Positions 51,901 to 57,900 of a DNA stretch of 64,000 bases are shown piece after piece. This DNA is from Candidatus Omnitrophota bacterium (GTDB lineage: Bacteria > Omnitrophota > Omnitrophia > Omnitrophales > Aquincolibacteriaceae): contig PLLJ01000034.1 of assembly GCA_003140935.1 (NCBI GenBank), forward strand, positions 79,505 through 143,504. The letters run 5' to 3'. The notes under the pieces were generated by a model, which searched no databases, had not been told where the DNA came from, and saw nothing but the letters and a program-made list of their open reading frames with translations. Numbering within the stretch: position 1 is the stretch's first letter; every line of letters starts with the position of its first letter. Both the position numbers and the translations under genes were made by a program.

Positions 51901-54900
51901 GCACCGTTGCCAATAAACCCACTAAAGAAACCGCCGGGACTTTCCGGAGCGCCTCAAGGCGCGCGTTCTGTTCGATCAGCACTTCCGCCTGATTCGTGTC
52001 TTCTTGCGCAACCCGATGATCGCTTGCGGGCTGGCTCATCTGCCAAATGGTGCGCCACAGGTTCCCGTGAGAATCATTGACATGAGTAATTTCATGCTTG
52101 GCCGTTTCAAGATACCGCGCCAGTTGCCACAAACCGAAGTCGAAAACAGTCTTGCCCTTATCAAGAGTCCGGGTGACCGCTGTCATCAACTTCATAGCGG
52201 CATATCCCGCCGCGGAACTCAAGTCCGTGACAGGATACGAAATAACTTTGACCGTTTTCTTCCCCTGGGAAACCGTCGGTTCACCGACACGGACCCCTTG
52301 AATGATATCTCTCAAGGAAAAGTCCCCCGCCAAAAATCCAAGATCGATCTTCCCGAGGCTTGCACGATCATATTTCAAAGCCTGTTCAATAAGGTCGGCT
52401 CTCAGGAACGCCGTCGTGCCATCCGCAAAACCAAGCTCGTTATTCTGGCCTTCTCGCCACTGCTCTGCATAGGGCGAGAACTGGACCTGACCTCCCCCGA
52501 TCCGGATCTGGACCGGCTGAACGAGAACGAGCGGCGTCTTTTCATCGCCGAGGACTTGCGCGGGCACCTTGAGGTCCCTGCGCGCGTTCGCTTTCAGAAC
52601 AAAAAAGTATTTGTCCGGCATCGCGAGCGTCGGGTAAAAATAATCCTGCGACCGGACGACTTGCCCGCCGCGCGTCGTTTGTACGGTCAGATTTTCCACG
52701 GCCGTGCCTTTAACATTGAAGGCTAACCCTTGCGCGGCGAAGAATTGCGGCAGGTCCTTATGGATCAGACGGGCGATGGCCCTCACATAATCCAATCCGT
52801 AACCTTCCGGAAGTTTCGTCCCGGAATTGATCCGTTTGGCCAGAGCCAGAAAAAAGACGCGGTGAATTTCCCCTAGTTTTTCGGGAGCGGCGCCTTGCTT
52901 CGGCATTTTTTTCCATTGTTCGATAAAAGAATTCAGCTCTCCCAAGACCGTGGCGATCGCGTTCCCTTTTGTGCCGTTCCAATCATTGAATTGCAGTGGT
53001 TCAAGCGATGCCGCATAACGGATTTGGTTCATCGCCCTCATCGCTTGGGAGGCGGCATCCGCCGGAGCGGGTTTCGCCGGAACTGCCGGTTTACGCACCT
53101 GACCCGCGAGCGTCGTCGCACCACCCAAAGCCCACAACGCTGCTCCAAGGACCCCTACCGTTCCGGTCGCTCTTAAAAACCCTCTTCGCCCCACTCCTTC
53201 GGGCGCGGGCAACCTAAGGGGCACTTCCACAGGTTCGGTCAACAATCCCATCGAAACCGGAGCCGCATCTAACGACCCTCTTTCGGTCATCAAGCGGAAG
53301 TTTTGCAGTGCCTCCAGTGTTAGGTCCGTCACATCAACGAATCTTTCCTCGGTCCTCATTTCAGACCGATCGTTGATCGTGGGCGCTTGAGGGCCGCGTG
53401 CGGTCGCGCCGCCTTCGGATTCCCAATCGCCGACTTGCCGCCTGTAGTTCCGGGCTTCGGCTGCGGCCTTTTCGACTCTCGAAGCCTTCTCCCGAACCTC
53501 GGAACGTTGAATGTCCCCCGGGTCTTCCGCCGGCGTGACATCTTCGTCCAAAGCCACAGTCGTTACGGATTTTCTTTTCTTGCTCGCATATTCCCTTAAT
53601 TTCTCGAAGACCCGCCTTCCTAATTCCAGCCTTGTCTGTTCGATCAACTGTCCACGCTCATCCCCAGGAGCTTTTTGGATTCTGCCGAGCATCGCATCCA
53701 CCTTCTCGGAATTTTCCCCCAGCCGAATCCACGAAGAGATAAGACGCATAAAACGCAAGGACTGCCCAGGGCCGAACTTCTCCTTAATAGTTCGGAAAGA
53801 ATGTTCCAAAATCGCGGTGGACCCCACCCCGCTGACCGAGGCGAAATAAACGGTTATCAAAAACAATCCGCGCTGGTCCGCCGGCAATCCGGACCAGACA
53901 ACACCTTCGTCCCTCCACATTTGAAGCGCTTGTTCCATGATCGCGACGCCACTGTGCCCGAACATGGACGTGTTGTAGACCGCCACCATGAACCGCCGCT
54001 GAAGCGCTTCATTCCCGAGGTCCGACCAGATCACCCCGTTCTTTCTCCAAAGTTCCAGAGCGGCTTCCGTCGAGACGCGGCCTTCCTCGCCCTCGATCGC
54101 CGCGTTATAGACCGCCGTCAAATATCCGATGCGGGACAGATTGCTCAGGTTCCCCCAAACCACCCCTTCCTTTTTCCATAACGCCAGAATCCCTTTCATG
54201 GCCTCCAAAGCGTCTTTCCCTTGCACCGACACTTCAAACACCGCGACCAAAAAATTCCTTCGTGCCAGTTGAAGTTCTTGGAAGGCGCCCACTCCCGCTT
54301 CATGCCACAAAGCAAGGACGTCCTTCATGGTGTCCAAACTTTCCTGCCCCCGGATAGCCACGGAAGAAACGGCCGTTAAAAACTGCGATTGAAGCGCCTC
54401 ACTGTCCAGCGTCGGCCAAGCGACCCCTTCGCTCTTCCATAGAGCCATGATATTCTTCATCAGCACCAAACCGGCCATACCTCGCATCGCCGCGCAATAG
54501 ACCAACGTCAAGTATTGATTCTTCAATTCCATGCTCAGCGTTTCCCAGTTGATCCCTTCCTCCCGCAAAAACGCAGTGACCTGCGGCAAGACCGCCGCAG
54601 CGTCTTTCCCCCTCATGGCAATGTTGTAGACCATTCTCATGAATTGTTGCCCGAGCTTCGGATCGAGACCAGCCCAAGTGACCCCCTGGCCCCTCCAAAA
54701 TTCCAAGATCTCGCCCATCGCTTCGGGCCCTTCTGGATCACCCACGGCGACACGATATACGGCAACCAGAAATTGTTTTTGCATGACCTCGTCCAGCCCG
54801 TTCCAAGCAACACCTTCTTTTTTCCATAAAGCTAAAACTGCCTTCATCTTCTTCAGACTGGTCTTACCTTTCATAGCGACGTTGTAGACCGCCACAAGAT

Positions 54901-57900
54901 ACTGGTTCTTCAAAGCCTCATAATTTTCGCGGTTCTTCCCTTCTCCAAGCGACGCTTCTTGGATTCCCCGCCATGTCGCCCCGATCTCCGCCCACATCCC
55001 CATAACTTCCTTCATGGCTTGAACACCCTCCTTGCCAGGCCAAGCCGCCTCATAGACGGCCACGAGGAATTGCCGCTTCGAGGAATCGCTCAATCCTCTC
55101 CACAAAACCCCATCCGCGCGCCACAACTCCAGGACTTCCAGCATCGCTTTCACTGCGGGCTTACCTCGCATAGCCACCACATAAACGGCGATCATGTATT
55201 GCTGTTTCAGCACGTTACTCATTTCCGTCCAAACAACCCCCTCCTTTTTCCAAGCTTTAAAGATCTCCTCCATCGCATCGGTCGCGGCACTGCCTGTCAT
55301 CGCGACCTTGTAGACCGCCGTAAAAAACTGCTTCTGTAATTCCGGCGTTAATTCCGAAAAAACAACTCCCTCCTGCTTCCAAAGTTTTAAGACAGCTTCC
55401 ATGGATTCCAGGGCTTTCGGTCCCCGGATGGACACGGCATAGACCGCGATTAAATATTGTTTTTTCAGTTCATCGGTCATGCCGGCCCAGGTAACACCTT
55501 CATCTTTCCAAAGTTCCATAGCCTGCTTCAGGAGCGTAAACCCCCGGCTCCCGGTCGCCGCCACGCTAAAGACAGCCGTCAAATATTGCTGCTTCACCTT
55601 GACCGATTGATGAACGATGTCCCATTCCTTATCGAGAGAGATAACGAGCTTCGCAAGATTGCTCAGAATGCCGGGAGAGACCGGCTGGCCTGCCACTTTG
55701 AGGATCCCGTCACGGATCCCTTCTTCTCCCAGGTAATCCCGGAGAAAGTTGTATCCTCTCCGGTACAGGACCAGCATATTCATAACGTTGCTGTACTCCT
55801 GCCGCAGCACCTTGTCCTTTTCCGGATAATCTTCAAAATCTCGGAGAAAAGCTGCCGCCAAAAGGTCGAATTGATCCACGATCTTTTTCGCGGCCGCCTC
55901 TTCATTTACCATATCCTGAAGCGACGCAACCAGTGCCGCATCGAAAAGGCTCCCTTCTTCCCTGAAAAGCGCCTTAATGGCTTCAAGAGACCCGTCGGTC
56001 GCGGCCACGATGTTCATCGCGTTCGTGGCTAATTGGAGGGACAACTTCTTAATTTCGGCGGAATGAAAACCCCAGGTTCCCGGACCGCGCCAGTTCATTT
56101 CATTTTCTATTTTTACCGCAAGCCGCGAAATATATTCCTGTTGGGATTTTTTGAACGGCCCGTGGCGGAAGATCATCAGCCCTTTCAAGGCTGCTTCGCC
56201 CAACTCCTCCACCCGCATTTCGGAACGGGCTTCAGAGCGCGCAGTACTATCGTCAGCGCCCTTACCCGGATCCGAAATGGTACGCAAGCGCTCGTCCAAG
56301 ACTTGAACGTACTGCTCCAGCAGAGGAATGGCTTTGATAAGATTTTCCCTTGAAATAATTGCCGTGGGCGCCCTAAATACGCGATCGAGCCACCGCCTGT
56401 AAAACGGCGTGAGACGCCTGACCACAACGGGATCAAAATCGTATCCCATGTCTTCGTATTTTTGTCGCCAGGCGGATTTGGCCAGCACATGAAACTTTTC
56501 CCGGATGAAGACGATCCCTTTCAAAGAGGCATCCTCGTCGCGCAAAGCTCGGGCCAGTTCCAACAAATTTTGATAAATCATCTTCGTAGAACGATATTTT
56601 CTTTGTTCCGGCGTTTCACCTGGTTGCCGCTTCCACAAATGCTCATTGCGATCCAAATGAAGCTCTGCGAAGGGGGGGCCACCGAACGAGCGCAAAACAA
56701 CCAGATGGGAAATTAATCCTATGGGTATTTCTCTTTCCGAAGTGACCCAACGATAAGCGGAATAGAACCCCAATCGATTAAGACCGAAGAAAATCTCCAT
56801 ACTCAAAAACAAGATCCCCGCACTCGGAACAAGGGACATTAAGCCAAGAACCCAGTGCTGATAAAGGAAGCTCAAAATGGACAGCATGACCATCGAAACT
56901 CCTATGCCTGCCGTAATAAGCGCTCGCCTGTTTCTCAAAGGATCAAGCTTTACCAGCCGCGCGCCCGTAAAGGCGCTTTGCGCCTGCTTTTCGCGGACTT
57001 CGGAATGGCCCACCTTCTCGCCTCCGTTCTGAGGCGCGAGGTCCGGAGCATGCCGGTGAATACGAACGCCGGACAGAGTCCTCCACAGATAGCGGAAGAA
57101 AAAATAAGCGAACATGAACCGGGGGATCGATTTTTGCGAAAGCAACGCCTGCCTAAAAACAAGACGTGCCTTTAATAAATATTCACGGGTTGTTTTCGGG
57201 GCTAACCGAAAAAGGGCTCCGTTTGCCGCTGTCAGTGAGGCCGCGGAACGCGGCGTCACCCAGGCAGAGAGCTTCTGAAATTCCTCCGGATGCCGCTCCT
57301 TCGCCAGAGCCCACAACATGTTCGGTTGAACACTGTAGTCCGAGAAATAATCCATCCAATCGTCGAGGTACTGACAAAACAAAGCTGCTTGGTGCAACAA
57401 GGATTCTCTCGTTCGAAACTGGCCCGGAGCGAACTTCCGAAACACTTTCGTTGCGATCTGCATCAGGGGGCGAAAATCGTCTTTTTCGGTAAAGATATTG
57501 GTCATGTCCCGAAGGGGAGGGAAAAGCCCCCCCCTTCGTTCAAGGAGATACGAATGCAGGAACACGCGCGAATTTTGCCAGAAGGCATCCCGCATGGCCT
57601 GCCGTTCCGTCTCATGAAGCGGCGTTAAGGACAGGGCTTGCTCAAAACGCTCAGGAAACGAGTCAATGATCTGAATTCCGTCCCTAGGGTCCGACGGGAA
57701 TACCGCGGAAATCGGCGCTGCACGCAGTTCAGCTTCCGCAACCCTGGATCGGAGGCGCAGGTCGATCTTGTGTGTGCGATCCACCTCCGCAAGCATCTCC
57801 GTGATCTCGTCAACGGAAAGACGCTTCCCGAAGCGATCCAACAAGTCGTCCCCCACCATCATGTACTGAGACCATAGCCAGAAAAGGCGGTCAAAACCTT

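Follow-up and report, generated by a model that had tools for sequence, protein, structure and literature searches.

A giant reading frame divided by RSExR linkers

The stretch of DNA analysed here (the window) comprises 64,000 nucleotides of contig PLLJ01000034.1, positions 79,505 to 143,504, from genome assembly GCA_003140935.1 of a Candidatus Omnitrophota bacterium. Our subject is a giant open reading frame (ORF) on its minus strand, the product of which an initial annotation, made from the sequence, had described as a membrane-embedded protein with an internal signal like those of the twin-arginine (Tat) export pathway.

45932..64000 and beyond, minus strand: giant ORF, with 6,022 C-terminal codons in the window and its 5′ end past position 64000

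The frame contains no in-frame stop anywhere in the window up to its edge. Exact look-ups of the neighbouring proteins located the full gene, with a product of 7,854 amino acids (aa), in two loci of the European Nucleotide Archive (ENA), ERZ28656093 scaffold_22 and ERZ19980586 c_421, to which the window is identical across 9.6 kb; a third assembly shows 6 differing positions. The first 1,832 residues of this product fall outside the window, and residues are numbered here with aa 1 at window positions 63998-64000, so that adding 1,832 gives the numbering of the full product. The same call in independent assemblies indicates that the giant gene is not an accident of assembly or gene calling, and an artefact of this kind is ruled out also by the presence of the same architecture in other species. 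Stop-codon reassignment is likewise ruled out, as there are no in-frame stops and the neighbouring genes terminate normally.

Sixteen copies of a five-residue motif, [R/H]-S-[E/D]-x-R, against 0.26 expected by chance, split the window ORF into modules M0-M16. The codons of these linkers vary synonymously (CGC/CGT/CGG, TCC/TCT/TCG/TCA, GAA/GAG, CGN/AGR) while the amino acids are kept, indicating that the linker has been selected as protein and not as a DNA repeat. The other frames of the window contain 0-5 scattered matches to the motif each, and the called genes contain none. Sense-to-stop recoding and a repeat acting at the DNA or RNA level are ruled out by the codon differences between linkers, and Shine-Dalgarno-like pausing by the use of both GAA and GAG.

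In size and content, the modules match complete proteins: they include two HAD hydrolases, a methyltransferase, a HEAT-repeat module, an SDR epimerase, a receiver and repeat proteins, and several others have no family match at all. The SDR/NAD epimerase, M11, can be aligned with solved epimerases as far as residue 319 of 321, and M12 consists of a full receiver domain. Two marks of a polyprotein are therefore found in this ORF, namely several complete, independently foldable protein equivalents in one frame and a conserved short motif at each module boundary.

Relatives could be found only by an exhaustive HMMER search with M9, the module that carries the Tat-like segment, and by a scan with a three-sequence alignment. 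The HMMER search yielded four further giants, P0004 (3,372 aa, partial, annotated as Candidatus Omnitrophota), P0005 (5,454 aa), P0006 (7,691 aa) and P0007 (3,509 aa), together with three free-standing homologues of M9, P0008 (524 aa), P0009 (510 aa) and P0010 (266 aa, a fragment), and the alignment-based scan added L014, a complete 5,876-aa ORF (L014:848-18475) in another Omnitrophota metagenome-assembled genome. Word-indexed homology searches with M9, M10-M16 and M6 returned generic receiver matches or nothing; single-protein M9 scans of genome and metagenome contigs, and a second metagenome scan, returned nothing from collections in which the window's own contigs are not included. An eight-sequence alignment proved too divergent for contig scanning.

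All five related giants have RSExR linkers, 8-15 each, and across the six giant ORFs the motif occurs at 70 sites against about 1.5 expected, with the consensus [S/P/A]-[A/V]-R-S-E-[A/V/L/M]-R-[E/A/G/T]-[E/G] and with A, V, L or M at the x position in 58 of the 70. In a full-text literature search for the linker strings, only unrelated alginate-lyase motifs were matched. Homologous modules are always bounded by linkers and differ in order, the module after M9 being M10 in the window but a receiver in P0004; the middle modules vary among the relatives, and P0005 has two copies of M9 (P0005a and P0005b). Some modules between linkers are very short, such as M8 (41 aa, 53369-53491) and M14 (8 aa, 47702-47725), both on the minus strand, and closely spaced linkers likewise occur in P0006 and L014. 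If the linkers are cut, M8, M14 and the region of a double linker, RSEARSEMR, would yield small released peptides.

The internal export-type signal of M9

The features of M9 and its boundaries, in the direction of translation, are as follows:

53354..53368, minus strand: linker RSEMR, which opens M9; homologous linkers stand before M9 in P0004, P0005 (twice), P0006, P0007 and L014
53195..53353, minus strand: pre-region of 53 aa from the linker to the signal core, conserved in the two closest relatives, with a predicted local confidence (pLDDT) below 50
53102..53194, minus strand: Tat-type signal core VGRRGFLRATGTVGVLGAALWALGGATTLAG, with a twin arginine, a Gly/Ala/Thr-rich hydrophobic region (h-region) and L-A-G before Q, a possible signal-peptidase site
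53036..53101, minus strand: Pro/Ala-rich spacer QVRKPAVPAKPAPADAASQAMR from the signal to the folded domain
51623..53062, minus strand: M9 folded domain, spanning module residues 98-577, of mixed alpha/beta type and zincin-like
52082..52096, minus strand: HEITH (HExxH), invariant in 8 of 8 aligned family members
51596..51610, minus strand: linker RSEMR, which closes M9; in the alignment, the free-standing homologues have their C-termini a few residues upstream of it

The segment at about 53110-53195 had been called a textbook twin-arginine signal peptide, lying directly after an RSEMR linker and about 3600 residues into the ORF. A Tat-like string, GVGRRGFLRATGTVGVLGAALWALGGATTLAGQ (aa 3602-3634, 53099-53197), is indeed present. 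It contains G-R-R-G-F-L-R (aa 3604-3610), in line with the Tat consensus S/T-R-R-x-F-L-K and its invariant RR, and continues with a 23-residue uncharged stretch, ATGTVGVLGAALWALGGATTLAG, ending in L-A-G before Q, which is a possible cleavage site. The pattern RRxF[LIVM][KR] with 17 or more uncharged residues after it appeared in 9 of 20,000 shuffles. The h-region has a best 15-aa Kyte-Doolittle mean of 1.59, and the 18 residues after RRGFL average 1.01. The word “textbook” is nevertheless too strong, since the window segment scores 10.3 bits on the curated hidden Markov model (HMM) TIGR01409, below its cut-off of 16.7. The signals of P0004 (16.1), P0005b (16.3) and P0007 (16.1) also fall short of that cut-off, as does P0004 on PF10518 (17.1 bits versus 22.7). 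Tat-signal models are the only curated models that match the signal segments, and, with every score below its cut-off, we refer to the signal as Tat-type and not as a proven Tat signal. As for its position, the RR motif is found 55 residues after the linker at 53354-53368, and, because the ORF runs off the window, it lies at about residue 5,437 of 7,854.

Compared with canonical Tat signals (TIGR01409, PF10518; review PMC7317946), the M9 signal shares the RRxFL[KR] motif, an h-region rich in Gly/Ala and of moderate hydrophobicity, small residues at both −1 and −3, and a Pro/Ala-rich spacer. It differs from them in being internal to an ORF, in standing 55 aa from the putative new N-terminus and in scoring below the curated cut-offs.

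An export-type segment is the first element after the linker in all seven M9 copies of the six giant ORFs. The twin arginine is found 55-61 aa after the linker in the window (RRGFLR), P0004 (RRNFLK) and L014 (RRGFLR), 78 aa after it in P0005b (RRLFLK), and only 5 aa after it in P0007 (RREMLR), while P0005a and P0006 have Sec-like hydrophobic segments 2 aa and about 17 aa after the linker, respectively. An exception to the placement of signals after linkers is seen elsewhere in P0007 (locus L013), where a second Tat-like motif, SRRAFFAMFGLGGVS, at aa 1195-1215, stands immediately before a linker (RSEAR at 1211).

Free-standing homologues of M9 are encoded by separate genes with their own upstream regions. 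P0008 begins with MAAKLDEPSRRDVLGAALSGLAAFTLPKALFAQ, a Tat-type signal (RRDVLG), and P0009 begins with a Sec-type signal; the internal M9 signals align with these N-terminal signals, and both proteins stop a few residues short of where the next linker stands. Because the alignment thus extends from the signal to just before the linker, the M9 module appears to correspond to a whole exported protein, signal included.

The N-terminal signals of the free-standing homologues also make it clear that the signals in the giants were inherited from independent genes, and one could regard the giants as recently fused genes in which old signals persist as idle relics. We consider this very unlikely. Between the window and P0004 (75% identity, dS about 0.9), the ratio of nonsynonymous to synonymous divergence (dN/dS) is 0.22 in the signal and 0.17 in both the pre-region and the mature domain, and the M9 signal is, judging from these ratios, under purifying selection. 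With dS near saturation, the signal is still kept in giants whose mature domains share only 28-50% identity. Moreover, its type switches between Tat and Sec while the export character is kept, which argues for turnover under selection and not for decay.

The initial annotation had envisaged a released module acquiring a Tat-type N-terminus after the Met of the linker. A new N-terminus derived from cleavage agrees with our data, and one derived from internal initiation does not: the internal Met codons upstream of the M9 signal are preceded by no ribosome-binding site with workable spacing, and P0007 has no start codon at all between linker and RR, so that any new N-terminus of M9 would come from cleavage. 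The same two observations count against separate translation of the modules without proteolysis, whether by internal initiation, by peptide-bond skipping or by termination-reinitiation at the linker. An ATG or GTG at x in 7 of the 16 linkers, and a gene for an ABC-F translation factor that adjoins the giant gene in three related loci, would be in its favour; however, the x codon is GCN, TCA, CTC, GTC or GTT in many linkers, and a five-residue motif with unconserved flanks is short for a nascent-chain skipping element. Separate translation is, in our estimate, extremely improbable.

In an AlphaFold2 model built with the eight-sequence alignment, residues 98-577 of M9 are confident (predicted template modelling score, pTM, 0.75), and residues 1-97, covering pre-region, signal and spacer, have a pLDDT below 50. 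The module gave no match in Pfam, in PDB profiles or in a Foldseek search against PDB, and is most aptly regarded as a putative metallopeptidase, exported and zincin-like, that represents a new family. Thermolysin-like zincins favour a hydrophobic residue just after the cut, and the prevalence of A, V, L or M at x invites the speculation, by fold only, that M9 could itself be a linker protease, cutting between E and x of RSExR. Its export signal argues against such a role in the cytoplasm.

Hydrophobic hairpins and the topology of the chain

Upstream of M9, the ORF contains two hydrophobic hairpins and a long repeat module:

60599-60730, minus strand: second hairpin of in-in topology, in the HEAT-repeat module M3, 55 aa after the linker that opens M3
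56993..57007, minus strand: linker HSEVR, a variant of RSExR, which opens M6
56240..56992, minus strand: M6, 251 aa, consisting of a 23-aa positive N-flank, a transmembrane (TM) hairpin and a soluble part of about 180 aa without detectable relatives
56861..56923, minus strand: first TM segment of M6, ALITAGIGVSMVMLSILSFLY, 21 aa, best 19-aa Kyte-Doolittle mean 2.19, preceded by RNRR
56780..56854, minus strand: second TM segment of M6, WVLGLMSLVPSAGILFLSMEIFFGL, 25 aa, best 19-aa Kyte-Doolittle mean 1.82, after a two-residue loop, QH
56213..56239, minus strand: double linker RSEARSEMR, which closes M6
53507-56224, minus strand: M7, 906 aa, with about 13 tandem repeats of 43-44 residues and LWKxEGV every 43 or 86 aa

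The TM hairpin that had been proposed at about 56700-56990 is real, and occupies 56780-56923. The string on which it was based, ITAGIGV...EIFFGL, corresponds to aa 2362-2407 (56780-56917) and resolves into two uncharged segments of about 20 residues, which by hydropathy measures, the short loop and the positive flanks qualify as a TM hairpin. The flanks are net positive on both sides, with 6 K/R versus 2 D/E before and 3 versus 2 after, which fits an in-in topology. A single 19-aa window with a mean of at least 2.1 is not unusual in a sequence of this length, since shuffling the 6,022-aa sequence at constant composition produces one in 58% of cases; a 44-aa stretch as hydrophobic as the M6 hairpin, on the other hand, is found in only about 2% of shuffles, and the protein has two. 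M6 has no Pfam match and no homologues by word-indexed search, and is absent from the related giants. The hairpin is itself preceded by a twin arginine (RNRR-ALITAG, 56924-56935, minus strand), followed by a helix far more hydrophobic than the usual Tat h-region.

From their positive-inside flanks, the sequence neighbouring both hairpins would be cytoplasmic. A hydropathy scan found no TM-grade segment in the rest of the ORF after the Tat-like segment, in agreement with the initial annotation. A weak hydrophobic stretch at aa 3379-3398 was rejected as a TM segment, as it is part of one tandem repeat of M7. Hydrophobic elements come early in their modules, at 22 aa after the linker in M6 and at 55 aa in both M3 and M9, and in five giants the first 80 aa of a module hold 13 of 21 hydrophobic clusters, where 17% would be expected (binomial p = 4.6e-6). 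That the giant protein as a whole is membrane-embedded does not follow, since both hairpins are in-in and topologically neutral, and each comes early in the module to which it belongs; M3 and M6 are more probably the only modules that are membrane proteins.

A single uncut chain could still be tethered to the inner membrane by the two hairpins, with the Tat-like segment serving as an internal signal-anchor or being an unexported, buried Gly/Ala-rich helix. Being neutral, the hairpins would agree with one cytoplasmic chain, the hydrophobicity of the h-region is weak, and a 2026 Omnitrophota preprint (bioRxiv 10.64898/2026.06.07.730766) reads multi-enzyme giants as membrane-anchored single chains. 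Furthermore, an internal twin arginine placed before the last TM helix works in dual Sec-Tat proteins, such as actinobacterial Rieske and related proteins (PMC3471235, PMC5449189), where it also follows an even number of Sec-type TM helices. In those proteins, however, the Tat helix is the last one and the exported domain forms the C-terminal end, unlike M9, which is followed by seven further modules (about 1,900 aa), and in the window ORF thousands of residues separate the elements. If the segment spanned the membrane of an uncut chain, these roughly 1,900 residues of cytoplasm-type modules (a putative methyltransferase-like module without Pfam match, NAD epimerase, receiver and HAD) would lie outside, while the like modules M1 and M2 would lie inside, placing similar enzymes on opposite sides of the membrane. 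A non-functional helix, in turn, would not be expected to keep its alignment with free-standing N-terminal signals, its adjacency to the linker in seven copies, or a dN/dS of 0.22, and an uncut chain leaves the conserved linker motif unexplained. We regard the uncut chain as unlikely. The initial annotation had already found a simple single-chain topology implausible and processing compatible with the sequence, and this judgement is borne out by the placement of the signal after the linker in seven copies from six giants, by its alignment with free-standing N-terminal signals and by the purifying selection acting on it.

Proposed module-wise processing and known systems

The arrangement described above suggests that the giant ORF probably encodes a polyprotein that is cut at or near RSExR, with targeting signals belonging to individual modules and not to one chain of about 860 kDa. 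The conservation of an internal export signal behind one and the same five-residue motif argues strongly, if indirectly, for cutting, and would also mark the cut positions. The sequences themselves show the modules, the motif, where the signals stand and how they are conserved, and their homology to the N-terminal signals of free-standing proteins; cleavage, its timing, the protease and the use of the Tat pathway are what we infer. The ORF would in effect be an operon written as a single reading frame, in which about twenty complete and unrelated proteins are strung on short flexible R-S-E-[A/V/L/M]-R linkers, its cargo comprising HAD hydrolases and methyltransferases, an SDR epimerase and a receiver, a HEAT protein and repeat proteins, as well as two membrane proteins and a single exported enzyme. 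The precursor would be synthesised in the cytoplasm, and some protease would cut it at or near each linker. M6, as well as M3, would then become a small membrane-inserted protein with a helical hairpin of in-in topology, and M9 would gain a free N-terminus, whereupon its Tat-type signal would direct it across the membrane. The signal may perhaps be removed after L-A-G, leaving a periplasmic zincin-like HExxH enzyme. In the uncut ORF the signal is not N-terminal, as Tat signals are, and it would become so only if the precursor is cut.

Several points weigh against such a polyprotein, in addition to the profile scores of the window signal and its relatives, which stay below the curated cut-offs. 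All relatives were retrieved with an M9 query, and the presence of M9 in every giant follows from the design of the search. The 55 aa between linker and RR make a long n-region for a Tat signal, and a TatA-motif scan of the 64 kb plus flanks returned nothing TatA-like. No protease domain was recognised by Pfam among the window modules. M6 has no relatives, so that its hairpin rests on the window sequence alone. The first module of the relatives carries a Sec-type signal, which poses a difficulty for topology if the first linker is not quickly cut. Finally, cysteine is depleted even in modules with ordinary cytoplasmic folds, and a cytoplasmic polyprotein does not explain this.

The first module is homologous among the related giants (P0004 aa 1-700, P0005 1-769, P0006 1-1234, P0007 1-663, and the ORF start of L014), and consists of the Sec-type signal peptide followed by an invariant IQDAH...EGA...GGFH. 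It has no match in Pfam or PDB profiles, and its AlphaFold2 model reaches a pLDDT of only 47.5. The invariant residues may resemble those of TraB/TIKI-type hydrolases, and the module could be a candidate for the processing enzyme. A later hydrophobic segment is found in this module in P0005 (aa 744-769, directly before the first linker) and in P0006 (aa 849-875), and no such segment is present in that of P0004, L014 or P0007. In P0005, the segment before the first linker would give an out-in topology, with the linker staying cytoplasmic. At the opposite end, M15-M16 (45935-47686, minus strand) form a conserved C-terminus shared by the window ORF, L014 (61% and 77% identity) and P0005, and have no family match. 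In three related loci (L012:7303-9195, L014:42-476 and L013:13858-15717), a gene for an ATPase of the ABC-F (translation-factor) type adjoins the giant gene. It stands upstream in P0004 and L014, with 85% identity between the two copies, and downstream in P0007 (29% identical); for the gene analysed here, the equivalent side falls beyond the window edge.

Cysteine accounts for 5 of the 6,022 residues of the window ORF (0.08%), versus 1.27% in 31 neighbouring ORFs, and for 0.03-0.22% in the related giants; tryptophan, at 1.78% versus 0.93% in the neighbouring ORFs, is enriched. Cysteine depletion is typical of proteins secreted unfolded, and its extension to all modules is in favour of a secreted effector array resembling MARTX toxins, which are giant bacterial proteins with conserved terminal regions and interchangeable effector modules released by processing. 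Here the whole precursor would be exported and cut outside or in a prey or host cell, and the signals would direct the products inside the target cell. The layout of the giants, with a conserved Sec-signal N-terminal module, M15-M16 ends in some relatives and variable cargo in between, is MARTX-like; modules of the HAD, methyltransferase and receiver types would act in the target cytoplasm; and Omnitrophota have been proposed in the literature to be predators or parasites with giant surface proteins. However, Pfam detected no RTX repeats or cysteine-protease domain in the window modules, P0004 or P0007, and no secretion-system genes were seen in the window or its flanks. The linker motif also differs from that of MARTX toxins, and the modules of the window ORF carry bacterial export signals. 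Hairpins of such strong hydrophobicity would bring Sec or type I export to a halt, and their positive-inside flanks fit insertion from the cytoplasm of the producer. An exported effector array is, in sum, quite improbable.

A polyprotein with module-wise targeting would work most like a viral polyprotein with internal signal sequences. In the flavivirus C-prM-E-NS1 region, one ORF yields several mature proteins, cleavage motifs are conserved, and internal signal and anchor sequences place each product. Flaviviruses are eukaryotic viruses that rely on co-translational Sec61 and host signal peptidase, whereas the window ORF is a bacterial chromosomal gene among housekeeping genes, its Tat-type signal belongs to a post-translational pathway acting on folded proteins, and its cleavage is only inferred.

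Giant ORFs of Omnitrophota have been documented as the “multi-enzyme metabolic cluster” class (bioRxiv 10.64898/2026.06.07.730766) and as Archaeovorin or dockerin-type giants (bioRxiv 10.1101/2023.11.21.568195). The former, a 2026 survey, treats its giants as single membrane-anchored chains, and drops internal signal-peptide calls on later chunks as chunking artefacts. One published study of Omnitrophota proposes cleavage into several products and says that the cleavage points are not known, and another paper calls such giant ORFs poorly understood; the giant genes of the phylum are a puzzle in the literature, where it is asked whether they act as one chain or are cut. These papers give no cleavage sites, and the Omnitrophota papers that were searched do not mention Tat. 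The window ORF resembles the published giants in coming from the same phylum and in being a very long frame tiled with unrelated enzyme domains, HEAT repeats, receivers and scattered TM helices. It differs from them in that a defined motif, RSExR, bounds modules of whole-protein size, in that its internal export signals are conserved, and in size, its 7.9 kaa (thousand aa) comparing with over 30 kaa in published giants. Features of the Archaeovorin and dockerin type (SecA_DEAD, C39, S8, dockerin) are absent from the Pfam results for the 16 scanned window modules, P0004 and P0007, and the dozens of TM helices by which that class is recognised are not found in the window ORF.

More generally, chromosomal polyproteins of Omnitrophota may release about twenty unrelated proteins at dedicated R-S-E-[A/V/L/M]-R sites, with signals that become N-terminal only after cleavage and send the products to the cytoplasm, the membrane or, through Sec or Tat, the periplasm; we hold the case for and against this wider proposition to be evenly balanced. 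If it is true, RSExR would be the first cleavage site to be defined concretely for Omnitrophota giant genes, and cutting at RSExR may extend to the much larger “multi-enzyme” giants. Topology, localisation and function would then have to be annotated per module and not per ORF, and a gene-expression strategy known mainly from viruses would be added to bacterial chromosomes.

The remaining 46 kb of the window are occupied by ordinary housekeeping genes of normal length and with normal stops (mraZ/mraW, penicillin-binding proteins, ligA, pur genes and EPSP synthase). Rfam gives a weak tRNA-like match at 36587-36646 on the minus strand (30.8 bits, gathering score 29), which was not called by ARAGORN and adjoins tRNA-Pro(CGG). 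A tRNA-Glu(UUC) is located at 45710-45785, also on the minus strand, about 150 bp downstream of the stop codon of the giant ORF.

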